A stretch of 61,634 nucleotides of DNA, taken from assembly GCA_910580155.1 (NCBI GenBank), contig CAJTWX010000001.1:1-61634 (forward strand), in the 5' to 3' direction. The notes beneath the pieces are model-generated. The model saw only the letters and a list, made by a program, of their open reading frames with translations, had not been told where the DNA came from and searched no databases. This document shows, one piece after another, positions 13,141 through 53,362 of the stretch; position 1 is the stretch's first letter, and each line of letters starts with the position of its first letter. The position numbers and the translations under genes are program-made. The DNA is from an uncultured Alphaproteobacteria bacterium. Its GTDB lineage: Bacteria > Pseudomonadota > Alphaproteobacteria > RF32 > CAG-239.

Positions 13141-13177
13141 TCGCTGATATAAGCATAACAAACGTTTGTTTGTTTTC

Positions 13178-13215
13178 TGGCGCCCTGAATCTCCGAGCAG
13201 GGCGCCATTCTTTTA
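13178..13215 (+). terminator. Rho-independent terminator after mtnN
   Basis: Stem tggcgccctg (13178-13187) pairs with cagggcgcca (13198-13207), followed by ttctttt. Confidence 0.65.
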
Positions 13216-13352
13216 ACACTAAAAAAAGCCCTTTCTATCAAAAAAAAGGGCAGGGGATGGAGAATATTTCAATTCAGCCATCCCCTTTGTGAAAAAATCA
13301 TACACGCATACTTCGCCACCGACATTCCCCGACAAATCAGGGAAGGGAACGG

Positions 13353-14474
13353 CTAATAATTAAAACTGCGCCCCAACAGGGTCAGATAGAGCGAAAATTG
13401 CACTGTTAAGATAACAATGATATAAATAATCGCTAATAAAGTGTACCAGCTGGCATAGCGCAAAATCTTGCCTTTGCAACAGTCATCCACAAATTTGGGA
13501 GTACCATATGCGTTTTCAGCCCGTTCTTCTTCCATAAAACCAACTGCAATAAAAGTCTTAATCAGGTAGAAAAGGTTAATAAGCAACAGAATCAAAACCC
13601 CGAGCCCCAGCAAGCTGGAAGCAATGTCAGCATTTTCGGAAACCGGTTGATTATCCGGCAAAACATAATTGCCGGCAACAGCCAGAACAATCAGCCCCAG
13701 AGCAGAATAAGTCATCGGACCGAAAAAGCCTTTCCAGCCGTTAGCGCCAGTGTCGTGCAAACGGCGGACATAAAGCGCCAGATACACCAGCAGCTCTATT
13801 CCCGAAAACGCCCAATACGCATAAACCTTGGCCGGAGCAACCGGAACACCATACATCAATGCATTGTAGTTGGAGTATTCGTAAGGAACAATAACAAAGA
13901 GCATCAAAATAAAGTTAATCAGCATAAAAGCCCAAAAATCGCAGCGGTTCGTTCTGGCTTTATAAGTAAAAATGTTTTTATAAGCATCAAGCCACGCGGC
14001 AAAAACGTTTTTAAGTCCGCACAAACAGCAGGAAACAGCACAGCAGCTCTCTGCCGCATTTTCTTCTTTAAGAGCCATAAATTTCTTGGCTTCGGCTTTT
14101 TGCGCATTTTCCTTCAGTGCATTGCGCTTGTTTTTGGCTGAAACGGCTTTTGCGCCTTTTTCAATTGTTTCGGCAGCAACCGCATCTTTTTTGGTATTTT
14201 GCGCAACAGCCGGTTTGGCTTTCACTGTTTTTTTCGTTTCGTTTTTGGCTTTAATCTCCATAACGGCGTCAACAACGTCTTTATTTGCCGTAATTGGCGT
14301 ATAGTCAACTTTTTTAGCAGCTTTCTTTGCAGCGGTTTTCTTAGCCGGTGTTTTAGCAGCTGTCGTTTTTGCCGCCACGGTTCTTTTGGCTGCCGGTTTA
14401 ACCACGGCTTTCTCTGCCTCAACAGGCTCTGAAACTTTTTTCACATCTTCTTTCGAAGTCTTTTTGGTAACCAT
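13353..14474 (-). CDS. DUF805-family inner-membrane protein with a long Lys/Ala/Pro-rich N-terminal extension
   Basis: The C-terminal half has DUF805 hallmarks (RCDFWAF..., YVRRLHDTGANGW) and several TM helices. About 150 N-terminal aa are AKKTAAKKAAKK-type low complexity, followed by the Cys cluster CCAVSCCLCG. Confidence 0.75.
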   Translation of the reverse strand: MVTKKTSKEDVKKVSEPVEAEKAVVKPAAKRTVAAKTTAAKTPAKKTAAKKAAKKVDYTPITANKDVVDAVMEIKAKNETKKTVKAKPAVAQNTKKDAVAAETIEKGAKAVSAKNKRNALKENAQKAEAKKFMALKEENAAESCCAVSCCLCGLKNVFAAWLDAYKNIFTYKARTNRCDFWAFMLINFILMLFVIVPYEYSNYNALMYGVPVAPAKVYAYWAFSGIELLVYLALYVRRLHDTGANGWKGFFGPMTYSALGLIVLAVAGNYVLPDNQPVSENADIASSLLGLGVLILLLINLFYLIKTFIAVGFMEEERAENAYGTPKFVDDCCKGKILRYASWYTLLAIIYIIVILTVQFSLYLTLLGRSFNY

Positions 14475-14566
14475 AATGTCCCTCTCAAAAAAATTAATTT
14501 AAAACACATAATAATCAAAAAATCTCTTTTTACAACCGTTTGCCTCTTTTAAACACAAGATTTTTA

Positions 14567-15151
14567 TCAAAACAGCACCTTGGCAGATTTAAACTTTTTG
14601 CTTTTTTCATCAAAATTAACGCGCAAAACCGAGCCGTTCTCAAGCCGCAAAGTCTTTTTAAGGCAGCTCTCGGCAAAAATCCGCACCAGCATTCCGTGTG
14701 TGACGATAAGCACTTTTTGGCGCCTGTCTTCCAAAAGCTTGGTGATAAATTTCATAAACCGCTGCTGAACTTCGCCGATACTTTCGCCTTCGGGGTAACG
14801 GATGTCATAGCGCTCAAGGTTGTTAAGGTCGTTAAAAGCCGCATAGATGTATGGAAACTTGGCGTTCAAGTCAGTTTTTTTAACGCCGGTGGCTTTGCCA
14901 AAGTCCATCTCGCGCAGCCGTTTGGTGTAATGCAAAGGCAAATCCAGCGCGGCGCTGACAATTTCAGCAGTTTTTTTTGCGCGTTTCAAATCGCTGGAAT
15001 AAACGGTTTCAATTTCTTCATTGATAAGTTTTTCGCCGGCAAAATGCGCTTGCTCGAGGCCTTTTTTGTTAATCGGAGTATCGTTCCACCCCTGTACGCG
15101 CCCTTCAACATTCCAGTCGGTTTGTCCGTGCCTCATCAAATATAAAATCAT
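14567..15151 (-). CDS. Histidine phosphatase family protein (phosphoglycerate-mutase-like)
   Basis: LYLMRHGQTDWN (RHG catalytic motif) and a C-terminal VTHG. Confidence 0.8.
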   Translation of the reverse strand: MILYLMRHGQTDWNVEGRVQGWNDTPINKKGLEQAHFAGEKLINEEIETVYSSDLKRAKKTAEIVSAALDLPLHYTKRLREMDFGKATGVKKTDLNAKFPYIYAAFNDLNNLERYDIRYPEGESIGEVQQRFMKFITKLLEDRRQKVLIVTHGMLVRIFAESCLKKTLRLENGSVLRVNFDEKSKKFKSAKVLF

Positions 15152-15246
15152 TGGCGTTTATACTTTCTTTGTCATTTTTATTGTCTTATAGGATAAAATA
15201 TAAACTTTTTTCCCTAAAATCAAGCATAAAAGCAAAAATAATCACA

Positions 15247-16503
15247 TTATTCACAAGCTTTTTGCAACGCACAGAAAAAGAATCCGTCCGTTTTAGTGGC
15301 AAGCGGTGAAAATTTAAGCCATTTATCACTGTCAAACGGGTAAAACTCCATCTCAAGTGTATCTTTCCACAGCCAGCGATGGTCAAGCGGCTTAAATTCC
15401 GGATGTTTGGCAAGAAAAGCCTCAATCTGACGTTCGTTTTCTTCGCAAAAGACTGAACAGGTAATATAAATCAGCCGTCCGCCGGCCTTGGTATGCGCCG
15501 CGCCAAAGTCCAAAATTTCAGCCTGTGTCCGACAGATATCGGCAAGGCGCTCGGGGGTTAAACGGAATTTGCCGTCCGGCGAGCGCCTCCAGACGCCGCT
15601 GCCCGAGCAGGGAGCATCAATAATAAAGCGCGTATAGTCCGTGTCGGTCACGTCTTTGATAGTCTTGATATTGAGGATATCCAGCCGTTCTGCCCGCTTT
15701 TTAATGCGGGAAAGGCGCTCTTGGCTGATATCGTGCGCCCAAACCACACCGTCATTGTTCATAAGCGCGCCGATAGCCAGAGCTTTTCCGCCCGCTCCGG
15801 CGCAATAGTCAATCACCTTATGGTGCGGTTTAACGCGGCAAAGCAATGCGATAAGCTGCGATGCCTCGTCCATCACTTCAATTTCTCCGTCTTGGTAGGT
15901 CATACAGTTGTTAAGGTTTACCCTGTCTTCCGAACGCAGCCCGATGGGAGAAAAAGGTGTCGGGCTGAAAAATATTCCTTCTTTCTTAAGCCGGTCGCGG
16001 GCTTTCTCGCGGGAGGTCAGATTCGCGCGCACATCAACCGGCGCAGTCATATTCAGCGCCTCCAAAAGCTTCTTGTTTTCAAACTTGTCCAGTAGCCAGC
16101 GCGGACATTCATAAACAGCTTCGTCGCTTAGGGGGTCAATCGCTGCCGCTTGGCGTAAAGCCGTTTTTTCTTCTTTGGTAAGCGGGGCAGGGGCATACTC
16201 CTCCCCGTTAAAAAGCAAATCAAGATCCGCGTCAGCAAAACACATCGCTGCCAAAAGCCGCGGAGTTACCGCACCGCCCAGAGCTTCCGTATAGCTCATC
16301 CGGTTGCGGATAACCTTCCAGACATTGTCGGCAATCTGTCTCCGGTCTTTAGAGCCGATATAGCGACGCTCTTTAAAATATTTATCGACAATAACATCCG
16401 CCGGCAGCGAATCTTTCAAAACTTCGCCCAAAATCTCGATTATAGCCTGTACACGGCTTGCTTCTTTCATCTTTTTCCTCACAAAATACCGTTGTTTTGC
16501 CAT
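15247..16503 (-). CDS. RsmB/NOP2/Sun-family RNA m5C methyltransferase
   Basis: N-terminal NusB-like region, SAM-binding DYCAGAGGKA, and catalytic DAPCSGSGVWRR. Confidence 0.8.
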   Translation of the reverse strand: MAKQRYFVRKKMKEASRVQAIIEILGEVLKDSLPADVIVDKYFKERRYIGSKDRRQIADNVWKVIRNRMSYTEALGGAVTPRLLAAMCFADADLDLLFNGEEYAPAPLTKEEKTALRQAAAIDPLSDEAVYECPRWLLDKFENKKLLEALNMTAPVDVRANLTSREKARDRLKKEGIFFSPTPFSPIGLRSEDRVNLNNCMTYQDGEIEVMDEASQLIALLCRVKPHHKVIDYCAGAGGKALAIGALMNNDGVVWAHDISQERLSRIKKRAERLDILNIKTIKDVTDTDYTRFIIDAPCSGSGVWRRSPDGKFRLTPERLADICRTQAEILDFGAAHTKAGGRLIYITCSVFCEENERQIEAFLAKHPEFKPLDHRWLWKDTLEMEFYPFDSDKWLKFSPLATKTDGFFFCALQKACE

Positions 16504-17869: not shown

Positions 17870-18514
17870 ATGATGTTGAAGATTTTGATGCCGTCATTAA
17901 GCGAACTTGTTAATGCCGACTATGCGAGTGTCAAATCCGCAGAAAGCGAACGGCTGATAAATAAGAGCCTGAGCGGGCTTATTCCTTCAGCAGCGCCGGA
18001 ACTGCTGCAAATATCCGGTATCCCCGGCGCCGGAAAAAGCACTTTTTGTGCCGCGCATCCCAAAAAGAATTACCTGTTTTTAAGTTTTGACCGTATAATG
18101 ACCGCACTAAAGGGCTATCAGCAAGAACTAAAACAAAACGGCAGTGTCGCCGCATTTCAAAAATATGAAATGCCCGCCCGCATCATCGGCTATGAACTGC
18201 TGCGCCGCGCGCTCAATAAAAAAGTCAACATAATGTTTGAACACAGCGGAACGAATAAAGCGCATCTGGAGCTGTTTCGCAATATCCGCCAAAAGGGCTA
18301 TACGACAGCGGTTGATTTTATTATTTGTGACACGGCAACAGCCATCAGGCGTGCACAAAAACGCGCCGAAGAAACCAAGCGCTATGTCCCCGAAACGCTG
18401 ATACTGGAGCGTGCCGCCAAATTTAAGGAATATATGGACGCATACAAAAAAGAAACGGCGCGTATAGCGTTGTTTGACGGCGGAAATAATTTCCTCCCGT
18501 TAAACAAAATTTAA
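17870..18514 (+). CDS. Zeta-toxin-like / AAA_33-type P-loop kinase
   Basis: Walker A GIPGAGKST, then FDRI..., EHSG, and RAQKRAEETKRYVPE resembling the zeta-toxin kinase fold. It starts 18 nt after ackA. Confidence 0.55.
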   Translation: MMLKILMPSLSELVNADYASVKSAESERLINKSLSGLIPSAAPELLQISGIPGAGKSTFCAAHPKKNYLFLSFDRIMTALKGYQQELKQNGSVAAFQKYEMPARIIGYELLRRALNKKVNIMFEHSGTNKAHLELFRNIRQKGYTTAVDFIICDTATAIRRAQKRAEETKRYVPETLILERAAKFKEYMDAYKKETARIALFDGGNNFLPLNKI

Positions 18515-26498: not shown

Positions 26499-26646
26499 TT
26501 AAATTCAGCTAACAATTTTAAAACCTTAAAGTCAAGGCTAAAGAAAAGAATATACAACACCTTGTGCAACATTTTTTGCATAAAAGGATTGCCAGATTCC
26601 AAAACTTATGTTACAATAATCTAACACAAAAAATATCGGAGGCGCA

Positions 26647-29571
26647 ATGCTGAACAGCTTAAAAAATATCTTAAAAGGACAGCGCGAAAAAGCTGAAGAG
26701 ATAATCGGCGATAAAGAAAAATATCAACAAGAAGCCAAAGTTCGCCATATTAAGGATATTGTCAAAAATCCTTTAACCCGCCTGCGTATTGAGTTTTCGT
26801 CAAATTTTCTGACCGCCGAGTGCAAAACCAAAATCACCGAGGAGTATGTTCGGAGCCTACACGCCAAAATAGAATCCGTTTTTGCAACCGATGAAGATAA
26901 AAAAGAAATTTTTGCCGCCCATCAGGAAAATTTTGAGCATTTTCTGGCGACTGGTGACATTAAAACCCCGTTAAACCTCAAAGACGAAGAATCACAGCTC
27001 TTTTGGGGCGCAGCTTTGGCGCTTTATGCCGTCCATCCCGAAATTTCTAAAAAATGGAATAACCGCAACCATAATCCTAACATCACCAAAAGCACGATTT
27101 GGCGGCGTATCGCCTCATCAACATATATGAGTCAGGAGTTGCAAAAACACGCCGCAATTTTGGAAAATTCATTAAGTAATCCCGATGCTAAAATAGTTTG
27201 GAGCACAAACGGCTATCCGAATATCAGCTATTGTTTTATCCCCGATAAAAATCTGATTATTGACGATATGCTCTGGACGCTGGTTGCCGGCGCCGATGCT
27301 GCCGCTCCGGCCATCAATCACGAAATTGCCCACTCGCAGGGAACACAAATCACAAAATCCCCGCGGATGGAAGAGATTGAAAAGCGCCAAAAGGAGCTGA
27401 TGGATATAATGCGCGTCGCCGCCCAAAAGAAAGACCGTGAAGCATATAATAAGGCAGCCAAAGAGGCAACGCGTTTAAAACTTGAGTTTCAATACCGGTT
27501 TTATTTTTTAGACGAGCTGGAGAATATGTATGCGAACCGTTTTGCGATTAATTTCGGCGGCGAATACGATGCTGCGCATTTAAATGAGCTTGAAGCAGAT
27601 ATTAACGTCGGCGCCAAATACCTTGCGCCGAAAAATGTTGAAGAGGCAGAAAAAATATTCAAAAAGTCTGCCCAGCAAAGAATTATACACGTTAAGGCTA
27701 TTGCGCGCAACAGCTTTTTTGCCAATAACCAGCTTATCTCGCCGCTTAAAAATGAAGAGTGGCATTCGCTGCACCTGTATCCTGAGCTGCTAAGTGGCAG
27801 AGATACAGATAACCGTCAGATGGGAGCAGCCGAGTGTTTTGAGCGCATTCGTGAAATTTGTGATAAATTTGAAACCAGTCAGCCCAGCCCGCGGCTTAAA
27901 AACCTGAATGAAAAAATGTATAAAACGCGTATGGCTTCAATGAGCAAGCGCCGTGCTGCAATGGTTGATGATTTTTTTGATATGTTTGTCGAACCCCATA
28001 TGGAAGAGCTGTATAAAGAAGCTGAAAAACAGTTTGATGAGCAGAATAAGCAACAGCAAAGCCAAATGCAAAACCAACAGCGGCAACAAGACCAGCAGCA
28101 GGAAAGCCAGCAAGGTCAGGGCAGCAGCCAAGACCAGCAACAGGAGAATCAGCAAGGACAAGGAGATAACCAAGAGCAGCAACAGGGACAAGGCGATGAA
28201 CAGCAGGGAGAAACCGATGAAAGCGCCTCAAACAGTATGCCTGAAGGATTTCCGCCGATGGAGCAGTTTGAACTGCCGGATACCGAGAGCCAATATCGCC
28301 CGAAACTTACGGAAGAAGAAATAAACGAACTGCTTGAAAAAGCCGAAAACCTGCAAGATTTGAAAAAGCTCCTCGAAAAAAGCGAACAAAACAAAGATAA
28401 TAACGGCGAGAATAAAGACAATAAAGAACCGCAGTCAGCCCGCGGGATAAATCCCAAAGAATCAAATAACAAACAGCAGGGCGATAATCTTGAAGACTAT
28501 ATTCCGCAAAATGACTATCCGACACTGATAGACATAGACCAAATGCAAAAGCTCAAAGGCGATGAAATGCAGGCTGCGCGTTTTTACCGCGAGGGCAATT
28601 GGGACGAATACCAAAAATATATCGCCCAATATGCCAATGAAATTGCGCAGGCCAAAAAACTCATAGCCGAGATTATCAAACAAAACAAGCTAGACAGCAT
28701 ACGCCGCGGACACGAAAAGATTAAAGAGAAAATGACCCAACTCCCCGTTCAGGGCGGGCGGACAATAGACCTGCAGCGTCACGTTGCGCTCGAACAAAAG
28801 CTCCGCCGCGGCGACCCGAACATTACCCGTAAAGATTTAGAGCGTTTCCGTACGCGCTATAAATATTCCGAAGACGAGATAATCAAAGAAATCCAAATTC
28901 CGCAATCCAACTTCGGTATCTTGATTGACGGTTCGGGCTCTATGACCGGCAGCCCATTTGAAAATGCGTTGGCAATCTCCTGCATTTTGTATGAAGCCGC
29001 CCGCAGTTTCAAAGAGATAAACGTATATATTTATATGATGGGTGAGCCGATACCATTAACGGTAGCGCTTCCGGATGACCCCACCAAAAAAATTGCCGAA
29101 AGGCTTGAGAGCGTGCGCAGAGGGCAGGGCGGCTGCAATGATTATTTGACGCCGGCTATTCGTCAGCTGCTGATAGATGTTTCTGATGATATGAAAGAAC
29201 ATCCGCACGTTAAAAGCGGCTTTACACACATCTTCTCCGTTACCGACGGCGGCAACAACGACTATGGCAGCGTAGATGTGAACAGCTGTATTGAAAAACT
29301 GTTGGAGAAAAACGAACAAATCACCTTTGACAGTTTCTTCATTGACGGTGGCTGGCGCAATTATACCAAACCGCTGATAGATAAGCTCAAAAAGCAAGGT
29401 TCAACCCAAATCGACTGTGTGGATGATATCGACAGTCCCGAGAAAATCCCCGCAGCGATTACCGAAATGTTGAAAAAAAGGATGAAAAACAGCCAAATAA
29501 AGACACCGCAAACCAACGACATTAAGCAAAAGTTAATAACTGATACGCTAAAAAATATAAAATGGCGTTAG
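26647..29571 (+). CDS. Giant HExxH-motif + Gln-rich linker + C-terminal von Willebrand A (vWA) domain protein
   Basis: 974 aa. HEIAH lies at nt 27319-27333. A Q/E/D/G low-complexity spacer spans nt 28041-28212. The vWA MIDAS is ILIDGSGSMTG (DGSGS at nt 28927-28941) with a later SVTDGGNN. Confidence 0.85.
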   Translation: MLNSLKNILKGQREKAEEIIGDKEKYQQEAKVRHIKDIVKNPLTRLRIEFSSNFLTAECKTKITEEYVRSLHAKIESVFATDEDKKEIFAAHQENFEHFLATGDIKTPLNLKDEESQLFWGAALALYAVHPEISKKWNNRNHNPNITKSTIWRRIASSTYMSQELQKHAAILENSLSNPDAKIVWSTNGYPNISYCFIPDKNLIIDDMLWTLVAGADAAAPAINHEIAHSQGTQITKSPRMEEIEKRQKELMDIMRVAAQKKDREAYNKAAKEATRLKLEFQYRFYFLDELENMYANRFAINFGGEYDAAHLNELEADINVGAKYLAPKNVEEAEKIFKKSAQQRIIHVKAIARNSFFANNQLISPLKNEEWHSLHLYPELLSGRDTDNRQMGAAECFERIREICDKFETSQPSPRLKNLNEKMYKTRMASMSKRRAAMVDDFFDMFVEPHMEELYKEAEKQFDEQNKQQQSQMQNQQRQQDQQQESQQGQGSSQDQQQENQQGQGDNQEQQQGQGDEQQGETDESASNSMPEGFPPMEQFELPDTESQYRPKLTEEEINELLEKAENLQDLKKLLEKSEQNKDNNGENKDNKEPQSARGINPKESNNKQQGDNLEDYIPQNDYPTLIDIDQMQKLKGDEMQAARFYREGNWDEYQKYIAQYANEIAQAKKLIAEIIKQNKLDSIRRGHEKIKEKMTQLPVQGGRTIDLQRHVALEQKLRRGDPNITRKDLERFRTRYKYSEDEIIKEIQIPQSNFGILIDGSGSMTGSPFENALAISCILYEAARSFKEINVYIYMMGEPIPLTVALPDDPTKKIAERLESVRRGQGGCNDYLTPAIRQLLIDVSDDMKEHPHVKSGFTHIFSVTDGGNNDYGSVDVNSCIEKLLEKNEQITFDSFFIDGGWRNYTKPLIDKLKKQGSTQIDCVDDIDSPEKIPAAITEMLKKRMKNSQIKTPQTNDIKQKLITDTLKNIKWR
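28041..28212 (+). repeat. Coding CAG/CAA-rich low-complexity tract (poly-Gln/Glu/Gly linker)
   Basis: Encodes QNKQQQSQMQNQQRQQDQQQESQQGQGSSQDQQQENQQGQGDNQEQQQGQGDEQQGE, with imperfect internal duplication. Confidence 0.8.
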
Positions 29572-29640
29572 ACAGAAATAAAAACCGGTTGCATAAATTG
29601 CCAAAAAAGGATATAATAAACGAAAAGACAAAAAAGGAGA

Positions 29641-32277
29641 ATGGCAATGGCAAAAATATACAGACACAAGTTCGGAACCCCCGCATATCCGATTCCGATT
29701 GCCGACAAGCTGACCGGTGAAATCACTTGGCTGGCCGATGAAGAAAACGCCGTTTACATCCCCACAATGCGTGACGAAGACAAAGACCGCATATATGGCC
29801 GCCTCATCCGGCAGGTTGTGACTGACCCGACAATGATGAAAGATATGACGGAAATGCTCCTAAGGCTTGATAAAAGCCGCACACCGGCCGAGAGCAAAAG
29901 CTACGGCTACACCACAATGGGTGCCCCCGGTAACGGTAAAACTTTCCTGTCCAGAGCCATCGGCGAACTCGTGCATCCCAAAGGCGCAATTATCGTAGAC
30001 TGTAATAATATTGATAACCCCGACGAGCTGTTTAAGGTAACAACTTTCAGCGTAGACCAGACCCGCAAGCAGCGCAAAGTAGACGCTGCAATCCGTATGG
30101 GCAATCACGACCCTGAAAATCCGTTTTCTCAAAATGCCGTAGTTTATATGAAAAAAATGTTCGGCAATGAAATTGTCACTCAGGAAACCCGAGACGGCAG
30201 AAAAATCACCGCCGTAGACTGGAACGCTATCAAGCAAGATTCCTCGTATGTGGAGGCGGTGCTTGATCGTGTGATGGAAATTGCCGAGATTAAGTATGAA
30301 AAAGATGCAAGCTCCTTAGGCTTTGTTGTCAGCAATGGTCCGTTATTGCAGGCATTGATAGACCCCGAGTCGCCGGACTACGGACGTATGGTTATCCGCG
30401 ATGAATCAAATCGCGGGCCGGTCGTAGACGCGTGGTTGCGCATTCAGGCATTTTTCTCCGAGCCGTCTGCCGACGAGCTGAAATTAAAAGGCGAAGATGA
30501 TAAAGAAATGGTTATCCGCCGCACTGAAATCCCCGACACGTTTATGTTTTTGGGCACGGCAAATAATGCGACCGAAGATATGGGGTTAAGTGCCAAGGAG
30601 CTGACCAAACCGATGATTTCCCGTGAAGGTATGGGCATTGATATCCGCCAGATTTCAGACCCCGAAAAGGCTGACTTTATCTCGCGTACGTTAAAGCACT
30701 TAACCGGTGTTCCTGCTTATCACGTTTATATGATGGACCCCGATTATTTTGACAAGCGTCCCGAAGAGCTGGCAAAAACCTTAATGCACCTGCGCACCGT
30801 CGGCTTAACCGCAGCCGAGAAAAAGAAAATCCCGCAGGAAGAAAAGTTTAATATCGAACATATTGACCGTACTATTCAGGTTGCAACCCAATACGGCAGC
30901 TTAATCGCCGAGGCGGAAAATATTGTCCGTCAGGCCATTAAAGATGACAGCCTGCCGACAGCTTATACCGATTATCTGCAAAATCAGGTTGTACTTGATT
31001 TGCGTTATGTTTATAAGCTTTACCAGCATTCTAAAATCAACCATCCGACAGTCAAAACAAAAGGCAAAGGATTATTTGCCGGCTTAGGGAAGAAAGAAAC
31101 CACCCAAACGCAGGAGGAAATCGCTTGGGAGATGAACAAGCGTATTGCCAAACGCGAAAAAGACCAGCTTTTGGTGCGCGGCACACGGCTTGAAAACGAA
31201 GTCGCCGCCAAACTGCACGATATGATAATTCCCGACAGTATAAACAATATGCTCAAAGACTCGGAAGACGCTCAAGCCGATTATGGCAAAATTGAGGGGT
31301 TATGGAAATCTCTGGTGCAGACAGCCAAAGGCTTAAAATTCGAATATGCCGGCTATATCGGGGAAGATTCGGTTGCACAGACATATAATGCCCGCCCCGA
31401 AGACCTGCCGAATGTTGCGCTTGATGATATAAAAGAAATTCTGATAAGTTCCATCAACCGCGAATATAAAGAAAACCTGCTGCCGGAAGACGTGTTTGAT
31501 GACGATACCTTGCTTGAAGCAACCAAAATGCTGGCTAAAGAAGACGATTTGGAACATATCCTCGTGCCAAACCACGATATCGAAACCACCGTAGACGAGC
31601 CATTATTAAAAACATATATCGCCTCTACCGAAAAAACGCAGCTTAACCGCGAAGATTTGGTAAGTGCCGCACAGTTTGCCGACAGTCTGATTTATAAAAA
31701 TATGCGCAAATACAACATCCGCAAGTTTGCCGATGAAAAGCCGCAATTAGACGAGGGATATGGCAATCAAACAAGCCATCATATTGCACTGGGCAAAGAC
31801 GACAATTTCTTCACCACCAGCGTTCTCGTTAATGACAAGGAAAATCAGAATATCGGCTTTGCCTCGATTATTTATAACAAAGGTAATCAAAACACGCTTG
31901 TTTTGGCAAATTTTGAGGTTGAAAATGACTGCCGCGCCAAGTTAAGCAAAAACGGCGTCTTGTTTGTGAACTTAAAACGCGAAAAAAGCGATGCCGATGC
32001 AGAGCGCGATTATAAACTTATAGCAAACTACCTGAAAGACCAGACCGACCAATGTGCAGACAGCAATGTTAAACCGTCGGATATTGTGTCCTCATTGATG
32101 TTGCGTATCGAAAAAGATTTAGCCGAAGAAGGAACAGTTGAAGACTATTGCCAATATTTGCAAGGCCTGTCAGGCGAAGAACTGGCCGTTTGTGATGCCG
32201 TGCAGCTGAGCAACATCGGTTATGAAGACAATCAAACCCTGCAACAGGTTATGGCAAAAAACATAAAAGGGAGATAA
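29641..32277 (+). CDS. AAA+ ATPase (AAA_5/MoxR-type module) with a large unknown C-terminal region
   Basis: 878 aa. Walker A GAPGNGKT (nt 29920-29943), Walker B MVIRDESNRG, FLGTANN and ISREGMG. The ATG at 29647 may be the true start because AAGGAG spacing fits it better. About 520 C-terminal aa carry no recognisable motif. Confidence 0.85.
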   Translation: MAMAKIYRHKFGTPAYPIPIADKLTGEITWLADEENAVYIPTMRDEDKDRIYGRLIRQVVTDPTMMKDMTEMLLRLDKSRTPAESKSYGYTTMGAPGNGKTFLSRAIGELVHPKGAIIVDCNNIDNPDELFKVTTFSVDQTRKQRKVDAAIRMGNHDPENPFSQNAVVYMKKMFGNEIVTQETRDGRKITAVDWNAIKQDSSYVEAVLDRVMEIAEIKYEKDASSLGFVVSNGPLLQALIDPESPDYGRMVIRDESNRGPVVDAWLRIQAFFSEPSADELKLKGEDDKEMVIRRTEIPDTFMFLGTANNATEDMGLSAKELTKPMISREGMGIDIRQISDPEKADFISRTLKHLTGVPAYHVYMMDPDYFDKRPEELAKTLMHLRTVGLTAAEKKKIPQEEKFNIEHIDRTIQVATQYGSLIAEAENIVRQAIKDDSLPTAYTDYLQNQVVLDLRYVYKLYQHSKINHPTVKTKGKGLFAGLGKKETTQTQEEIAWEMNKRIAKREKDQLLVRGTRLENEVAAKLHDMIIPDSINNMLKDSEDAQADYGKIEGLWKSLVQTAKGLKFEYAGYIGEDSVAQTYNARPEDLPNVALDDIKEILISSINREYKENLLPEDVFDDDTLLEATKMLAKEDDLEHILVPNHDIETTVDEPLLKTYIASTEKTQLNREDLVSAAQFADSLIYKNMRKYNIRKFADEKPQLDEGYGNQTSHHIALGKDDNFFTTSVLVNDKENQNIGFASIIYNKGNQNTLVLANFEVENDCRAKLSKNGVLFVNLKREKSDADAERDYKLIANYLKDQTDQCADSNVKPSDIVSSLMLRIEKDLAEEGTVEDYCQYLQGLSGEELAVCDAVQLSNIGYEDNQTLQQVMAKNIKGR

Positions 32278-32279
32278 TA

Positions 32280-32594
32280 ATGGAAAAGTTTATGGATAAA
32301 AACGAGATTGAGAGCATCATTCTGCAAACCGTGCTGGCACGCCCGTATCAAGAGTTTGAGGGCTGCCGCGTGTATCCGCTTCAGGCCAAAGGCGAAGAAG
32401 AAGTGATAAAAAATCTCAAAGGTACCAAAGAGGTTGAAACACTTGCCGAGCTTGAAGATGCAGTCAATGCTCCCGATGTCGCGCAGGTTTATGTCGGCAA
32501 ATACGCTTCCATCACCTCTAAGGGAATGAAAAATGTCCTTTCCCGCACCGCTCTGACCAAAGAAATTTTCTGTGCTTTCACGGTTAAAGAGTAA
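32280..32594 (+). CDS. Small acidic hypothetical protein (104 aa), third gene of the vWA/AAA+ operon
   Basis: The ATG lies 2 nt after the stop of the AAA+ gene. No family recognised. Confidence 0.6.
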   Translation: MEKFMDKNEIESIILQTVLARPYQEFEGCRVYPLQAKGEEEVIKNLKGTKEVETLAELEDAVNAPDVAQVYVGKYASITSKGMKNVLSRTALTKEIFCAFTVKE

Positions 32595-32791
32595 AATTTA
32601 ATCGTTGCAGGTGGCGCTGCCATTGCTGTACAGTAAAAAATATGCGCGTAGCTCTTCATACTCTCAACTGGTTGAAAATTTAATCGTTGCAGGTGGCGCT
32701 GCCATTGCTGCACAATAAAAAATATGCGCGTAGCTATGCATACTCTCAACTGGTTGAAAATTTAATCGTTGCAGGTGGCGCTGCCACTTGA
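32593..32791. repeat. 82-bp tandem direct repeat, 2 full copies plus a ~35-bp partial copy
   Basis: Units start at 32593, 32675 and 32757 (aaaatttaatcgttgcaggtggcgctgcca...). Copies 1 and 2 differ at a handful of positions. The third copy is truncated where the next promoter begins. Confidence 0.9.
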
Positions 32792-41177: not shown

Positions 41178-44012
41178 ATGAAACGACAAATAATCAACTA
41201 TCCGGAATTTTTAAAAGCCATAGATGGTCTTTTTTCAGCAAACACGGTTCATAGCATAAAAGAGTATCAAGACGAGGCATCTGCGTCCAAACAGCGCCGC
41301 AAGCAAAAGATTGCCGCCGTTTCAACCCGCCTGCGCGAGATGAAAGCAGAGATTGAGAAATATAAAATCAAAATCAGAAAAGCCGCAGAAAAAGATAATA
41401 AAAAAGAATACGGTCTCCGTCTTAATCAGCTTATCCGCGCCAAAACCGAATTGCTGAAAGTTTATAAAGAAGAGAAAAACCTCACGCCGTTTTCAGAGCT
41501 TTCCGAAGAGGCAAAAGTATACGCTTGTACTCAGAGCCTCTTGAAAAAATATCTGCTTGCCGCATTTGTCAAATCCTCCCCTGAAGCGTATCATATAAAT
41601 GAGGACGGTACTGTCACGCTGAATGTGGATGAATTTTGCAATTCCATCTTATACCAACAGGCAAGCCACATCAAAGACTATGTATCCTCTTATATTCAGC
41701 ATTATCCGCACCGCGTTGTCGGCGGGCGTTACTTTACCGGTCTGTATAAGGAACTGCCGGAGTTTGATGATGTTCTTGCTGTTGCAGACGAATACTTTGA
41801 CGTGTTGAATCAAAACAATGAAAAATTAGAAGAAAACCTGCAAAAGAGCCGTCAAGGTATAGAAGTTATTGAGTCCTATCCCGAATATCAGGCGCAAGCC
41901 GTTCGCTTGCTCACAAAAGAAGCGTTGCAATATGAGGGAACGGAAATGGAGCATTGCGTAGCCACATATTCTGACAAAGTAAAAAACGGCACCACGCAAA
42001 TTTATTCGCTTCGTGATAATGGGGATGAATATACTGAGTTTGTGCCGCACGCCACCATTGAGTTTCAAGATGGGAAAATCAAACAAATCAAAGGCTTTAA
42101 AGACAGCCTTGTTGATATGGCTTACATTAAAGCCACGCGCTGTCTGGTCAAAACGTTGCTTCATTTAAACACCGATGAAGAAATACTCAATTACCCTGAT
42201 ATTCCGTTATCAGAAAAAAACAATATCGGCTTTTTAAAAGATACTAAAGGGACACTGCGCGATATTTTTGGCGTGTTTCAAAAAGATACGGAAATTGTTT
42301 TTGAAGCCGTCAGAGTTAAGGCAAACCGGATAAAATGTCTGAACTTCAGCTGTATAAAATTCAAAACAGTTACCGTCATCGGCGCGATAATGCCCAAAAC
42401 AATACAGCATTTGGCTACAGCCGGTAATTTGCAAAAAATAAACCTTATTTATCAAAATGGGCAGGCCGAACAGACGCTGAATTTATCAAAACTGTCTGGC
42501 GAAGAGGTTTGCATAGAATTAAAAAAAGATGCTCAGGCAAGAAAAATAGTGCTCCCCTCAAATATCCGCATATTAACGATAACTGGAAATATGCCGGATT
42601 TGGCAGTAATTGAAGGCACAACCTTACAAGAGCTTACATTGAACGGAAACTTTAATAGCCTGACCAAAATTCCGCCCGTCAGCAAAGAAATATGCTTCGG
42701 AGGAACATTTAACGGCCGTGTGCTTGAAACAAAAAGCCTGCATCAGTTACAAAAATTAACATTAAAGGGTTCTTGTGATTTATTTTCACAGTTGAATTTG
42801 CCCAGTCTGGAAAAACTGGAATTAAGTGAAGGGACTTTTGAGAATATAGAAAAATTTGATTTTGCCTCATATCCTTCAATATCTAATGTAAATTTTTTTG
42901 AAAGCACGTTCCCGAAATTAAAGGAAATCAAAACCTCAGGAAACATTAAAGAATTTACAGGCTCACATTCTGCTTATCCTCTGTTGGAGCGCATAGACTT
43001 ATCTCAATCTCCGCGCAAAACTTTTGGGGTTTTAGAGCAGGATGCATTAAATGAAATATATTTCCTAATAACTGCAGGCGAAAGAGCGGGCGAAAAGGTT
43101 AGCACCGCATTTCCGGCATTAGGCGGTTATCTAATGAATTTTACAACCCTTTCGGCACTAAAAGAATTAAAATTTCGGGAAGATATCGAAAAAATAAATT
43201 TAACCGGAATCAAATTTGGAGCGATAAATCCGATTGATTTTTCCAGCTATAAAAATTTAGAAGAGCTGAGTTTGCAATTTACCAGTTTTTCCGATAATAC
43301 CATCATCGATTTATCTCAATGCACCAGCTTAAACAAACTGTCACTTGATTTGGAACAGGTGGTTAATCCTCCTGAAAATATCGAAAAGCTGGATATCCGG
43401 CGTGGAAAAGATACGCCTTCTCCAAAAACGCTAGATCTCAGGCAATATCCGCACCTGAAATCATTAAAATTAGATTTTCTGCCCGAAGATAATAAACCGC
43501 TGTGCGTTGAAGAGCTGAATATATTCTTAATGGACGCGTCCAACGCCCACGTTAAAGAACTGGACTTTTCGCACATACGCCATTTAAAAGTTGCCACCTC
43601 TATGCAGCTTAAACTGCCACAATTGGAGCGTCTGGTTATGTCCGAAAGTTTTTCAAGCCTGCATCTGTTTAATCTCTCTCCGCATTTAACCGAGATAGAC
43701 TTGTCCCGAACCAAAGGGGAGGTAGAAATTATAGAAATAGATTGGGGTGAAGAAGTAATGAGCAGCACCGGAAAAATTTACTTGAAATCCGAGCAATTTA
43801 ATGTTATTAAAAAGATAAAAATCGGCAAAGAAACAGATTTGCAGTTGCCGCCTTGTACGGCAAATCTGCCGATAACCATAGAATTGCCGGCAGACGCAAC
43901 GGATAAAGAACAAGAATTAAAAACGAAATATCCGCACTTGCAAATTGCCCGCAAACAGCTGCCGGCACTGCCGCCTCGCCAATTGCCATACATACGGGCA
44001 GGGCGTTTATAG
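41178..44012 (+). CDS. Large protein: coiled-coil N-terminus, PcfJ-like domain, long LRR-like repeat region
   Basis: 944 aa. EGTEMEHCVATYSDKVKNGTTQIYSLRDNG...HATIEFQDGKIKQIKGFKDS resembles the PcfJ-like domain signature. About 550 aa of irregular Leu-rich repeats follow (LQELTLNGNFNSLTKIP, LEKLELSEGTFENIEKFDF, and others). Confidence 0.75.
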   Translation: MKRQIINYPEFLKAIDGLFSANTVHSIKEYQDEASASKQRRKQKIAAVSTRLREMKAEIEKYKIKIRKAAEKDNKKEYGLRLNQLIRAKTELLKVYKEEKNLTPFSELSEEAKVYACTQSLLKKYLLAAFVKSSPEAYHINEDGTVTLNVDEFCNSILYQQASHIKDYVSSYIQHYPHRVVGGRYFTGLYKELPEFDDVLAVADEYFDVLNQNNEKLEENLQKSRQGIEVIESYPEYQAQAVRLLTKEALQYEGTEMEHCVATYSDKVKNGTTQIYSLRDNGDEYTEFVPHATIEFQDGKIKQIKGFKDSLVDMAYIKATRCLVKTLLHLNTDEEILNYPDIPLSEKNNIGFLKDTKGTLRDIFGVFQKDTEIVFEAVRVKANRIKCLNFSCIKFKTVTVIGAIMPKTIQHLATAGNLQKINLIYQNGQAEQTLNLSKLSGEEVCIELKKDAQARKIVLPSNIRILTITGNMPDLAVIEGTTLQELTLNGNFNSLTKIPPVSKEICFGGTFNGRVLETKSLHQLQKLTLKGSCDLFSQLNLPSLEKLELSEGTFENIEKFDFASYPSISNVNFFESTFPKLKEIKTSGNIKEFTGSHSAYPLLERIDLSQSPRKTFGVLEQDALNEIYFLITAGERAGEKVSTAFPALGGYLMNFTTLSALKELKFREDIEKINLTGIKFGAINPIDFSSYKNLEELSLQFTSFSDNTIIDLSQCTSLNKLSLDLEQVVNPPENIEKLDIRRGKDTPSPKTLDLRQYPHLKSLKLDFLPEDNKPLCVEELNIFLMDASNAHVKELDFSHIRHLKVATSMQLKLPQLERLVMSESFSSLHLFNLSPHLTEIDLSRTKGEVEIIEIDWGEEVMSSTGKIYLKSEQFNVIKKIKIGKETDLQLPPCTANLPITIELPADATDKEQELKTKYPHLQIARKQLPALPPRQLPYIRAGRL

Positions 44013-45355: not shown

Positions 45356-47665
45356 TTAATTTAAATGTAAAATATTTTTGCCGGTAATTGAAACAGCCGC
45401 CGTCCGTCCCAGATTGTCAACAGCACGGATAATCGCTTTCCCGACGGGTAAAGCAATTTCAAGGTTCTGATACCGCCCGCTTTTTCCGGCAAAGACATCG
45501 TTAACAAACCAGAGCGTTTCCGCCGCGTCTGCATCAAGCTCTGCCGAAAGTGTCAGCTTTTGCCCGTAACTGTGTGCAATTAAAACGCTGCCGTCTGCCG
45601 GCGATTTAATCACCGGCGCTTTTCCCGATAGTGCCGTCGATACTTCTGCACAGTTTTCCGCAAATTCGGGCGGCCGGTTCAACCGGATTCCCGCCTGCTC
45701 GTAAATCCGGTAAATTTCCGAATCCCAAAATTGGTAAGCTTTCAACTCGGTTAGGGGCGGCATATGCCGGCAGGCACGTTTGCCACTTTTTTTGTCAATG
45801 GGAATTTTGCGTGTGATGTTCTTATAAGGCGTTTTCGTGATGTTCGGAATAAAATAAGTGCTGCCTGTCTTTTCGCAGTCCTCATTTGCCAGTTCACCAG
45901 TGGCAAGGCATATATCCGCCTTCGTTAGTTCCAATGTTTCCAAAGCTGGAGTGTCTTGCCTGACCAAGCCGTCCGCTGCCATCTGCCGGATAAGTGCAAA
46001 CATCAGCGGAGCCGCCGTCTCGCGTCCCACAAGCGCATTGTTCGGCGTGTTGTCAAAATTGCCAAGCCAGATGACAAACACATAATCGCCTGCAATTCCA
46101 GCACTCCACGCATCACGAAAGCCGAAAGACGTTCCCGTCTTCCACGCCACATTATAACCATCGTGGCTGACAAGATAGGGCAGGGCGTGCCGGTCAACCG
46201 GCGGATTAGTCTTAAGCATCTCTAAGGTTAAAAAAGCACTTTCCGGCATAAGCAGCGGCACGGCCAGACTTTCTGCTTCTCCTGCAAAATAGCGCAGCCG
46301 CCGAAACCTTCCCTGATTGCCGAGCATTGCATAAAGCTCTGCCAAATTTTGCATTGTCACTTCCGCCCCGCCAAGCGCCAACGCCAGACCATAATGCCTT
46401 GCCGGTTTAAGCTTCGGAATGCCGGCTTTTTGCAATAAATTATAAAAGCTGTCCGCCGAAAGTTTTTGCAACAACTCAACCGCCGGAATGTTACGGCTTT
46501 GCACTAAGGCCTCAGTAGCGTTAATCAGCCCTTTAAAGTCGTGGTCAAAGTTCTCAGGCGTATATAAGCCATAGTTTTCCGGCACATCGCGCACAAGCGA
46601 CAGCGGGTGAATAAGCCCTTGTTCCAGCGCCAGCGCATAAATAAACGGTTTTAAAGCTGACCCCGGAGAACGCAGGGAAGTCAAACCGTCAACTTGTCCG
46701 GAAATTTCTTTGTCAAAAAAATCCGCCGAACCAACTTCGGCAATAACCTCCATTGTTTGCTTGTTGACAATGATTGCTGCAGCATTGCGTACCCCGAGGA
46801 CGCGCTGTTTATCAATATAAGAACGCAGCGCTTGTTCCAGTTTGTGCTGCCAAACGCCATCAATTGTAGTACGGATGTTGCCGCTTGTCGTCTGCCGCTT
46901 AACACGCTGCACGGTGTGCATTGCTGTTTTCGGCAGATGTTTTTCAAACAACACCGGCAGGTCAAGCGTCGTTTCATTGCCGTATGCTGTGCTCCAGAGT
47001 GTCTTCAGCCGCTGCACGGCTGCCGCAATCCGCTGCTGCCCGCCGGTTTTAAGCGGATGCCTTTTTTCAGGATTTTGAGGGATAACCGCAAGAGCTGCCG
47101 CCTGCGGCAGATTAAGTTTGTCAGCTTCGGTGTTAAAATAAATGAGTGCCGCCGCACCAATGCCTTCAATATTTCCGCCCATCGGGCACAGATTGTAGTA
47201 TGCCTCCAAAATTTCTTCTTTGCTGTAGTGTCGTTCCAGCTGTAATGCTCGCAAAATCTGCTGCATTTTACCCCAAAGGGAAGATGTATCAAGCCGCCAC
47301 CTGAGTCGAGCCACCTGCATCGTAAGGGTAGAAGCCCCTTGTCTGCGCCCGCCCGCAATCATTGCCGCTGCTGCCCGCGCAAGGCTCGGGATATCCACGC
47401 CGAAATGGCTGAAAAACCGTTTATCTTCATAGGTTAAAAGCGCTTTTTTCGTGTGTTCGTTAATCTTTTTGTACGGCACAAACAGACGATACTTTTCATC
47501 TAACGAAAGTGATAAATTGAGCAGATTGCCCTCACGGTCAAATACCGCGCGCGAAAAGGTATAAGGTTCCAGCAAATCCGGTTTCGGGCAAAACAGAAAG
47601 CCGAGAACAGCAAGGAATATACTGCCCGCCGTTATCGCCCGCAGCCGCAATGCCCGCCGCTTCAT
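45356..47665 (-). CDS. pbpC: Penicillin-binding protein 1C
   Basis: Transglycosylase motifs (EDKRFFSHFGVD, RQGASTLTMQ), transpeptidase SxxK (SPGSALKPF), and a C-terminal PBP1C-type extension. The ATG at 47665 shares one nucleotide with the TGA of the upstream alpha-2-macroglobulin gene. Confidence 0.85.
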   Translation of the reverse strand: MKRRALRLRAITAGSIFLAVLGFLFCPKPDLLEPYTFSRAVFDREGNLLNLSLSLDEKYRLFVPYKKINEHTKKALLTYEDKRFFSHFGVDIPSLARAAAAMIAGGRRQGASTLTMQVARLRWRLDTSSLWGKMQQILRALQLERHYSKEEILEAYYNLCPMGGNIEGIGAAALIYFNTEADKLNLPQAAALAVIPQNPEKRHPLKTGGQQRIAAAVQRLKTLWSTAYGNETTLDLPVLFEKHLPKTAMHTVQRVKRQTTSGNIRTTIDGVWQHKLEQALRSYIDKQRVLGVRNAAAIIVNKQTMEVIAEVGSADFFDKEISGQVDGLTSLRSPGSALKPFIYALALEQGLIHPLSLVRDVPENYGLYTPENFDHDFKGLINATEALVQSRNIPAVELLQKLSADSFYNLLQKAGIPKLKPARHYGLALALGGAEVTMQNLAELYAMLGNQGRFRRLRYFAGEAESLAVPLLMPESAFLTLEMLKTNPPVDRHALPYLVSHDGYNVAWKTGTSFGFRDAWSAGIAGDYVFVIWLGNFDNTPNNALVGRETAAPLMFALIRQMAADGLVRQDTPALETLELTKADICLATGELANEDCEKTGSTYFIPNITKTPYKNITRKIPIDKKSGKRACRHMPPLTELKAYQFWDSEIYRIYEQAGIRLNRPPEFAENCAEVSTALSGKAPVIKSPADGSVLIAHSYGQKLTLSAELDADAAETLWFVNDVFAGKSGRYQNLEIALPVGKAIIRAVDNLGRTAAVSITGKNILHLN

Positions 47666-53178: not shown

Positions 53179-53362
53179 TTCTGCCCCCATATCTGAAAAT
53201 TAAGATTCTTTTAAACAAAGTGCATTTTTTTGCTTAAACAGTCAATTTTATATCCATACTGTAAACAATTTTTTTATTGTAAAACTTTTGAGATAGCTGT
53301 TGACAAAGTTTAAAATTTCAGGCACTATATCTCTATATCGAAGTCCTTAAAAGGAGGGGAAT

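Follow-up and report, generated by a model that had tools for sequence, protein, structure and literature searches.

An operon encoding an AAA+ ATPase, a vWA protein with an HExxH-bearing head and a small third protein in uncultured gut Alphaproteobacteria

We describe here a three-gene module from a 61,634-nucleotide stretch of DNA of an uncultured alphaproteobacterium (contig CAJTWX010000001.1; the whole of this stretch is referred to below as the window). Its genes, ORF1 to ORF3, pair an ATPase of the AAA+ class (ATPases associated with diverse cellular activities) with a protein ending in a von Willebrand factor A (vWA) domain, and add a small third protein. An operon joining an AAA+ ATPase to a vWA partner had been proposed in an initial annotation made from the sequence alone, and the proposal is upheld by the motifs of the two proteins, by vWA matches in the family of ORF1 and by the predicted AAA+ fold of ORF2. 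The AAA+-vWA partnership is familiar, unlike the head domain of the vWA protein, the small third protein, the families of fourth genes found in relatives and the enlarged ATPase. By analogy with RavA-ViaA, CbbQ-CbbO, NorQ-NorD, BchI-BchD, CobS-CobT and Rea1/midasin, the trio may be a soluble, ATP-powered machine of the AAA+-vWA type that remodels and processes proteins and has a zincin-like site built in, a reading to which we give roughly even chances of being right.

A three-gene operon

The three open reading frames (ORFs) of the initial annotation, with their strand and both gaps, were re-found at the coordinates originally assigned to them (Table 1). All lie on the plus strand, with 69 nt between ORF1 and ORF2 and 2 nt between ORF2 and ORF3. 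A promoter-like site is located 30 nt 5' of the ORF1 start, inside a 148-nt divergent intergenic region common with a PMT_2 gene, and a search of the coding strand between ORF1, ORF2 and ORF3 for terminator-like sites found none. The ribosome-binding site (RBS) of ORF3, GGGAG, sits inside the last codons of ORF2. Given the shared strand, the short gaps, the upstream promoter-like site, the lack of a terminator-like site between the genes and the placement of the ORF3 RBS within ORF2, we conclude that the three genes form one operon. In relatives of the window, ORF3 overlaps ORF2 by 4-8 nt, and this overlap, together with the RBS within ORF2, makes translational coupling of the two genes likely. 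The true start of ORF2 is probably the second ATG, at 29647, and not the one at 29641 (window 29641-29649), since homologues start with MAKIY and a GGAG precedes the second ATG by 7 nt. Transmembrane-like segments are absent from all three proteins. The motifs quoted in the initial annotation were likewise all re-found in the ORF1 and ORF2 translations at their coordinates, and they are kept in homologues.

Table 1. Features of the module and of its surroundings, in positions of the window
Feature	Positions	Strand	Basis
Zeta-toxin / AAA_33-type kinase gene (214 aa)	17870-18514
Promoter-like site TTGCCA-17-TACAAT with TG extension	26589-26617	+	Consensus scan, pattern match only
ORF1 (974 aa): head, low-complexity tether, helical segment, C-terminal vWA domain	26647-29571	+
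ORF1 head, aa 1-459	26647-28023	+	AlphaFold2 model, family profile
HEIAH (H225, E226, H229), candidate zinc-binding/catalytic motif	27319-27333	+	Conservation
ELENMYANR, aa 290-298, E292 candidate third metal ligand	27514-27540	+	Conservation
Gln/Glu/Asn/Asp-rich low-complexity tether, ~aa 460-640	28024-28566	+	Composition
42-nt tandem repeat, 2.4 copies	28087-28186
vWA domain, ~aa 752-940	28900-29466	+	Profiles, alignments
MIDAS residues D761-G-S763-G-S765	28927-28941	+	Alignments
MIDAS residues T866-D867 (in TDGGNN, aa 866-871)	29242-29247	+	Alignments
Basic C-terminal tail of ORF1	29557-29568
ORF2 (878 aa)	29641-32277	+	ORF list, homologue alignment, AlphaFold2 model
Walker A GAPGNGKT, aa 94-101	29920-29943	+	Invariant residues in 25 homologues
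Walker B VIRDESNR (DExNR type), aa 251-258	30391-30414	+	D254 and E255 invariant
Sensor-1 strand GTANN (T306, N308) and ISREG (S327, R328; candidate arginine finger)	30553-30630	+	Conservation
C-terminal alpha/beta domain of ORF2, aa 639-860	31555-32220
Basic C-terminal tail of ORF2	32263-32274
ORF3 (104 aa), small	32280-32594	+	ORF list
82-bp tandem repeat, 2.4 copies, 96% match	32593-32786
Protein with PcfJ-like domain (944 aa)	41178-44012
Alpha-2-macroglobulin (1841 aa) and adjoining PBP1C-type transglycosylase/transpeptidase (770 aa)	45356-53190

The ATPase

ORF2 is an active-looking AAA+ ATPase, a motor of the MoxR/AAA_5 style. Its AAA+ motif set is complete, comprising a Walker A, a Walker B of the hhhhDE form followed by N-R, a sensor-1 Asn and a candidate arginine finger, and the layout G-F-x-x-x-N-G-P ... 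DE-S-N-R ... T-A-N ... S-R parallels the pattern of MoxR, AAA_5 and McrB proteins, with which ORF2 shares the DExNR-type Walker B and the T-x-N ... S-R region. Across 25 homologues with 38-84% identity, G94, P96, G99, K100, T101, D254, E255, N257, R258, T306, N308, S327 and R328 are all invariant. In an alignment of 16 sequences that takes in six relatives of 17-24% identity, G94, P96, G99, K100, D254, E255 and N308 are still invariant, and N257, T306 and R328 are at least 90% conserved down to 17% identity.

The AlphaFold2 model of ORF2 (predicted local distance difference test score, pLDDT, 82; predicted template-modelling score, pTM, 0.63) contains a small N-terminal beta domain, a single AAA+ module (~aa 89-340), a long helical region (aa 343-632) and a C-terminal alpha/beta domain. 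An insert of ~130 aa (aa 121-250) is predicted between strand 2 and Walker B and a hairpin (aa 279-293) ahead of the sensor-1 strand, and the loop at aa 315-338 is modelled with low confidence. When this model was compared with the PDB using Foldseek, the best matches were MCM (E 4e-3), the AAA+ domain of McrB (3e-2) and the ring of Rea1 (4e-2), all with low TM-scores; the matches are weak partly because the query was a full-length multi-domain model. Sequence profiles gave a mixed picture. AAA_5 is matched by 20 of the 25 homologues (best E 3.5e-6), AAA_22 is matched equally often, and distant family members mostly gave no match. The ORF2 family profile had no match among PDB sequences at first and later P-loop fragments only. 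In the PDB profile search the Walker B aligned with IIDEINRAN of McrB, the GTP-specific AAA+ protein of McrBC, and the Walker A and G-F-x-x-x-x-G ... DE-x-NR stretches of the two proteins can be aligned, but neither E-value is significant (1.3 by sequence, 0.03 by structure), and the trio has neither an McrC-like partner nor a DNA-binding domain.

The full-length Foldseek search also returned, at low probability, cysteine proteases of the CE clan (SseL, SENP8, RavZ) and retroviral integrase cores, matches that presumably stem from the C-terminal alpha/beta domain. A search for conserved Cys or His in the C-terminal half of ORF2 found none. We therefore rejected a catalytic reading of the alpha/beta domain, and regard the C-terminal half as a binding or scaffold region and not an enzyme.

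The vWA protein and its head domain

The tether that joins the two ends of ORF1 contains 41 Q, 25 E, 17 N and 16 D among its 181 residues, and part of it is encoded by the 42-nt tandem repeat. Homologues of ORF1 range in length from 938 to 1344 aa, the upper value being reached in a rumen clade, and they vary mainly in the tether. Even homologues that are 92-100% identical still differ in length (960-1036 aa), and slippage in the 42-nt repeat is a likely source of these differences.

In the vWA part, D761, S763, S765, T866 and D867 of the metal-ion-dependent adhesion site (MIDAS) are invariant among close relatives. The MIDAS elements named in the initial annotation, DxSxS and TD, are thus conserved. 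The usual MIDAS Thr is replaced by GGCND in the window clade and falls in a G-T-D in distant members. VWA_2 is matched by 18 of 27 members of the ORF1 family (best E 1.6e-8) and VWA by 14 of 27; two of ten members scanned, P0173 and P0222, exceed the VWA_2/VWA cut-off, so that a profile match of this strength is found in the family and not in the window protein. A PDB profile search with the vWA part gave weak matches to the vWA domain of TRAP (E 0.11) and to that of CobT (E 0.15, over the DxSxS strand only).

The head contains the HEIAH motif and, ~60 aa C-terminal of it, an FLDELENMY stretch in which the initial annotation had placed a possible third metal ligand. In 13 ORF1 heads of 44-89% identity, H225, E226, H229, E290, E292, N293, A296, N297 and R298 are invariant, and E292 remains at least 90% conserved in the broad family of 27 sequences, where the surrounding consensus is DEAENNxANR. 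Over the full 27-sequence alignment W120, D207, N361, R436, D761 and S765 are invariant, and E226, E292, S763 and D867 reach 90% conservation or more. Of the 27 members, which are 17-42% identical to the window protein, 22 keep HExxH and the remaining five lack both His together, which is the pattern expected when a metal site decays.

The AlphaFold2 model of the head (pLDDT 84.6, pTM 0.80) is mostly helical. It places a small sheet of three strands (aa 182-206) just ahead of the helix with HExxH (aa 216-231), and a long helix (aa 264-326) carries ELENMYANR. This modelled order of sheet, HExxH helix and Glu helix fits a gluzincin-like site. Comparison of the model by Foldseek with the PDB yielded no significant neighbour (best E 1.4) and no zincin; against BFVD the best match was a weak one (E 0.56) to an uncharacterised haloarchaeal virus protein, again with no zincin. 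Searches of the head against Pfam and PDB sequences produced no match, and a PDB aminotransferase match on the ELENxxxNR string was dismissed as spurious. Among peptidase profiles applied to the 27 members, the sole match was Peptidase_M10 in one member (E 0.0065). The head combines a conserved HExxH and third-ligand candidate with a modelled structure in which comparison did not recover the zincin fold.

Proteins in which a DUF2201_N domain with HExxH is fused to a vWA-like DUF2201 domain are usually encoded beside an AAA_5 gene, and the initial annotation had drawn a link between ORF1 and this family. ORF1 does resemble them in having a putative metallopeptidase domain N-terminal to a vWA-type domain and an AAA+ neighbour. 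The link nevertheless fails at the level of profiles, as neither PF13203 nor PF09967 (DUF2201_N and DUF2201) was matched at E <= 1 by the window protein or by any of the 27 diverse family members. Unlike DUF2201 proteins, ORF1 is also about twice as long and tethered, and for its head the PDB offers no structural neighbour.

The small third protein

The initial annotation had treated ORF3 as a small rider gene. It is instead a conserved core component, found even beside relatives that are only 17-25% identical. Among the distant loci described below, a small gene is present in the ATPase operon, directly 3' of the ATPase gene, in eight of nine; in the ninth, L027, the contig ends within the ATPase gene. 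Direct similarity to ORF3 could be seen in two compared genes, those of L028 (93 aa, E 1e-10) and L030 (117 aa, E 7e-7). The earlier description of ORF3 as acidic is accurate for the window (isoelectric point 5.1) but does not extend to its homologues, which span 5.1 to 9.0. In the ORF3 family alignment E59 is the sole nearly invariant residue, and searches of ORF3 against Pfam and the PDB gave no match.

Conservation among close relatives

Relatives of ORF1 and ORF2 were sought among 5.8 billion proteins and counted as clusters. ORF2 has 41 cluster relatives, all of 830-980 aa except two truncated entries, and ORF1 has 184, of which the 120 listed are 938-1162 aa long. A scan of GTDB with one genome per species found 19 loci, in metagenome-assembled genomes (MAGs) titled uncultured Alphaproteobacteria, 'Acetobacter sp.' or 'Rickettsiales' from the guts of humans, ruminants and other animals, probably the lineage known in GTDB as RF32. 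In every one of these 19 species loci long enough to show it, the trio is complete, keeps its gene order and shares one strand, which bears out the co-occurrence on which the initial annotation had made its proposal depend. Most of the loci also keep their neighbours, with TrkH and PMT_2 upstream on the other strand and phosphatidylserine (PS) decarboxylase, a MORN protein and a flavin reductase downstream. The divergence of the module broadly tracks that of these neighbours, though it is somewhat faster: in L017, TrkH is 68% and PS decarboxylase 69% identical to the window, compared with about 55% for ORF1, 43% for ORF2 and 54% for ORF3.

We computed the ratio of nonsynonymous to synonymous substitution rates (dN/dS) between the window and its 90% relative, L004. 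The values for the module (0.068 for the ORF1 head, 0.060 for the ORF1 vWA part, 0.068 for ORF2 and 0.090 for ORF3) are similar to those of neighbouring genes (0.040 for TrkH, 0.064 for PS decarboxylase and 0.053 for GT8), and all three genes are under purifying selection. Searches of plasmid and phage collections by tblastn and scans of IMG/VR found no relatives of the module. From the synteny, the selection and the lack of relatives in these collections, we conclude that the locus in the window lineage is a conserved chromosomal cluster and not a mobile or variable island. The variable or defence-island context considered in the initial annotation is thus not what was found in this lineage, in which TrkH, PMT_2 and PS decarboxylase form a conserved neighbourhood and the module evolves under neighbour-like dN/dS.

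The wider family and its fourth genes

An exhaustive HMMER search with a profile of the ORF1 head against 1.84 billion representatives placed 141 clusters (at 50% identity) in the family with E <= 1e-3, of which 110 had E <= 1e-10. Most are 850-1100 aa long and match end to end. A C-terminal VWA or VWA_2 match is present in nine of ten distant members scanned, so the head-vWA architecture is conserved. The names attached to the family are those of Alphaproteobacteria, Rickettsiales or Pseudomonadota MAGs or 'Acetobacter sp. CAG:977', and as far as these names go, this unnamed family is confined to uncultured Alphaproteobacteria of animal guts and the rumen and to Rickettsiales-like MAGs.

Nine distant loci were compared (Table 2). 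Genes for the vWA protein and the ATPase are present in all nine, and the small gene together with 1-5 variable downstream genes in eight. The distant ATPases are homologous to ORF2 (for example, E 5e-67 for L029 and E 1e-69 for L030). The downstream proteins of seven distant loci (those other than L027 and L031) have a common C-terminal domain of ~65-110 aa.

Table 2. Gene content of nine distant loci, with protein lengths in aa
Locus	vWA protein	ATPase	Small protein	Downstream genes
L025/L026	1051	934	106	Ankyrin-like 892, ankyrin-like 474
L027	965	Two AAA modules; ended by contig end
L028	891	908	93	LRR-like (leucine-rich repeat) 525
L029	857	904	100	521 (faint ankyrin match)
L030	976	905	117	Five genes, 372 (cut by locus end) to 517; four shown paralogous
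L031 (order: ATPase, small protein, vWA protein)	1011	849	96	Two ankyrin proteins
L032	1042	895	114	512
L033 (Rickettsiales MAG)	857	942	105	369, 392, 384
L034	1072	895	133	506

Closer to the window, the abundant human-gut sister clade (L006-L015) has one or two extra genes after ORF3 on the same strand (527 + 613 or 596 + 753 aa). These proteins have in common, with each other and with a 1050-aa protein encoded after ORF3 in the rumen clade, an N-terminal region of ~90 aa. A variable fourth component is therefore usual in the family, and the window has a three-gene version without the fourth gene. The initial annotation had seen no obvious client genes; this holds for the window, but most relatives have variable downstream genes, several of them with ankyrin or LRR matches.

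Some features of individual loci are recorded here in their own right. The ATPase gene of L027 (positions 12916-16085 of that locus), which ends at the contig end, encodes two tandem AAA modules, and each half matches ORF2 aa ~20-530. In L029 (5887-9729) the module lies directly 3' of phage-type integrase, resolvase/recombinase, ParB_N and Fic genes, and this is the only locus examined that resembles a mobile island. Basic C-terminal tails end ORF1, ORF2 and the products of downstream genes in L006, L008 and L031. The tails in module proteins read ...IKWR, ...IKGR (with R878 at least 90% conserved), ...LFGRG, ...HGRW and ...GRGEW, and they may serve as a signal for docking or export, or be coincidental.

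Searches of NCBIfam, PADLOC and PHROGs with ORF1-ORF3 gave nothing useful, and in Pfam the three proteins gave only sub-threshold matches to P-loop profiles and VWA_2. These results agree with the earlier view that the trio is not one of the named pairs. A search of the open-access literature (vWA/MoxR with ankyrin, DUF2201 with MoxR, RF32 genomes) found no description of the module.

Discussion

The architecture of the trio provides a possible explanation of how such a remodelling and processing machine would work. By analogy with the named pairs, ORF2 would form a ring on which the vWA domain of ORF1 docks, and an acidic residue of a partner protein would be gripped by the MIDAS metal. Hydrolysis of ATP would then pull on or reshape the partner, and the tethered head, if it is the zinc peptidase that its motif suggests, could cut the partner or an associated protein. 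ORF3 may be an adaptor or regulator, and possibly itself a MIDAS ligand through its near-invariant glutamate, E59. In most relatives, the partners are likely to be the 1-5 variable proteins encoded directly downstream, with their docking-like shared terminal domains. The window species is without downstream variable genes, so its client would be encoded elsewhere or be a component of the host cell. A more ambitious version of the proposal is that the window encodes the minimal form of an unrecognised four-part machine that many Alphaproteobacteria would have, in which a motor, a tethered MIDAS anchor with a new-fold metallopeptidase and an adaptor serve to process or deploy diversifying arrays of proteins, a part of them resembling ankyrin or LRR proteins, be they host-directed effectors or immune sensors. 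We offer this version tentatively, with the chances leaning against it.

A number of results weigh against the proposed machine. For the motor, the window ORF2 scores 15.6 bits against Pfam AAA_5 (PF07728), below the cut-off of 22 (E 0.016), and matches over aa 94-139 only; hhalign comparison of the ORF2 family profile with E. coli RavA and YehL recovered the P-loop only, at a probability of 6-9%. AAA_3 was not matched at its gathering score either. The AAA_5/MoxR assignment made in the initial annotation thus rests on the motifs and the predicted fold and not on these profile comparisons, and formal membership of ORF2 in the MoxR/AAA_5 family is not demonstrable. For the anchor, the window ORF1 scores 16.5 bits against VWA_2, for which the cut-off is 27 (E 0.013, aa 758-840), and the replacement of the MIDAS Thr in the window clade means that metal binding may be altered. 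For the head, the loss of HExxH in five members indicates that head catalysis is not essential to every version of the module, and because the head was not assigned to the known zincins by any of the profile or structure searches, its putative peptidase activity rests on the motif and the conservation of that motif. As for the partner, a search of the window with a hidden Markov model of the C-terminal domain of the fourth genes and with tblastn of the sister-clade fourth genes found no match.

AAA+-vWA pairs are a recurring solution for metal insertion and complex assembly, and a role in immunity has been proposed for them from comparative genomics. Like RavA-ViaA, CbbQ-CbbO, NorQ-NorD, CoxD-CoxE and YehL-YehP, the module has adjacent genes for one AAA+ ATPase and one MIDAS-bearing vWA protein, and the best structural matches of ORF2, although weak, fall in the same AAA+ superclade as the ATPases of the MoxR pairs. 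Unlike the MoxR-vWA pairs, it has an 878-aa ATPase with extra N- and C-terminal domains that scores below the AAA_5 cut-off, a vWA protein with a 460-aa HExxH head and a long low-complexity tether, an obligatory small third protein and no metabolic client nearby. One might nevertheless ask whether the trio is a diverged housekeeping pair for metal or cofactor insertion, such as CobS-CobT, CbbQ-CbbO, NorQ-NorD or CoxD-CoxE. In CobT and BchD an acidic or polar linker stands ahead of the C-terminal vWA domain, and ORF1 has an acidic/polar linker in the same place; the weak CobT match of the ORF1 vWA domain in the PDB, confined to the DxSxS strand, points the same way. Rea1/midasin can be added to this comparison, since in all three a low-complexity linker, charged or polar, precedes the MIDAS domain, which is C-terminal and works with an AAA+ ring, and the Rea1 ring is among the top Foldseek matches of ORF2. 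The likeness does not go beyond architecture: Rea1 and BchD, unlike the trio, combine their AAA+ and MIDAS parts in a single polypeptide, and neither has an HExxH head. Against a housekeeping pair, no NCBIfam equivalog, no Pfam match to CobT, CbbQ or NorD and no profile match to CbbO was found, CobT_C being matched in one of 27 members at E 0.16, and cobalamin, Rubisco, nitric oxide reductase (NOR) and CO-dehydrogenase genes are absent from the window and its relatives. ORF2 is, moreover, almost three times as long as the ATPases of such pairs and has extra domains, and the ORF1 head has no counterpart in them, with no CobT structure in the Foldseek list even though CobT structures are in the PDB. 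We consider a diverged housekeeping pair very improbable indeed.

Two further explanations give the variable downstream genes of the relatives a larger part. The trio could belong to the NTP-dependent conflict systems of the vWA-MoxR kind, acting against phages or other invaders, with repeat proteins as sensors, the AAA+-vWA pair as the licensing step and the head as the effector peptidase. In the ternary systems of this kind that have been described, the third component is a VMAP, iSTAND, FtsH or beta-propeller protein and effector domains lie C-terminal to the vWA domain (PMC7159879). The trio resembles them in its AAA+ and vWA core, its obligatory third protein and the variable accessory proteins of its relatives, which form downstream tandem arrays of diverging paralogues with some ankyrin/LRR matches; the module is also found at different chromosomal places in different lineages, and at one distant locus it stands beside integrase, resolvase, ParB and Fic genes. 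Unlike in those systems, however, the third protein of the trio is ~100 aa long and matches none of their components, the peptidase-like domain is N-terminal to the vWA domain and not in the C-terminal effector position, and the hosts are not known as multicellular. The locus is vertically inherited here, with the same neighbours across 19 species and housekeeping-like purifying selection in the window lineage; PADLOC gave no match, the plasmid, phage and IMG/VR collections held no relatives, and the window version is without variable genes. Taken together, these points lead us to think a conflict system unlikely.

The other explanation is that the module matures, loads or deploys eukaryote-like effectors with ankyrin or LRR repeats toward a eukaryotic host or a protist. 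It accords with the weak or faint ankyrin/LRR matches or tandem paralogues found downstream in six of the nine distant loci (L025, L028, L029, L030, L031 and L033), in the human-gut sister clade and in the rumen clade, and with the origin of the named members in Rickettsiales, Alphaproteobacteria or Pseudomonadota MAGs from gut and rumen samples. Many module proteins also end in basic G-R or W-R tails, which are reminiscent of type IV secretion signals. Yet no secretion genes adjoin the module in the loci examined, TadE and T2SSF being present at a distance in L032 only, and in the window species the trio is under purifying selection with no repeat-protein gene downstream of it. A role in effector handling seems unlikely to us.

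Compared with the named AAA+-vWA pairs, the module adds an HExxH head, an obligatory 100-aa protein and, in relatives, arrays of variable partners. Should the head prove to be a peptidase, the module would amount to a protease gated by ATP and equipped with a MIDAS clamp for its substrate; should the partners prove to be effectors or sensors, the module would offer a fresh way of learning how these bacteria handle hosts or invaders. The module bears on no long-standing question, and its mechanism rests on analogy; it is, on the other hand, small and soluble and has many motifs that can be altered by point mutation, which makes it easy to test in a group of bacteria whose biology is almost wholly undescribed.

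Other features of the window

The window as a whole is an ordinary piece of bacterial chromosome, with genes for acetate kinase, DinB, TrkH, a PMT_2 glycosyltransferase and PS decarboxylase, GT2 and GT8 transferases, a PBP1-type enzyme and alpha-2-macroglobulin. As the initial annotation had stated, it has no Rubisco, NOR, cobalamin or chelatase genes near the module, and tRNA and Rfam scans of the whole window were empty.

The 82-bp tandem repeat is located after the ORF3 stop and ahead of the next gene's promoter-like site, at the very position where the sister clades have their extra downstream genes. A 23-nt core of the repeat recurs in three copies in L004 (at 13077, 16788 and 17056), which identifies it as a dispersed intergenic repeat of the species group. 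Folded as RNA, the repeat is not unusually stable (z -0.96). A downstream gene of the window, of 243 aa, was considered as a fourth component of the module and rejected, since relatives differ in where it lies and in which direction it points, and the shared domains have no match in it.

Further from the module, the window encodes a 944-aa protein that has a PcfJ-like domain (Pfam E 1.4e-9), is otherwise unannotated and is conserved in the relative L005; it was compared with the 1050-aa downstream protein of the rumen clade as possible kin and found to be unrelated. The gene for a zeta-toxin / AAA_33-type kinase is located directly 3' of that for acetate kinase. The alpha-2-macroglobulin gene adjoins one for a PBP1C-type enzyme, a pairing that is already known; the alpha-2-macroglobulin is of the bacterial kind.

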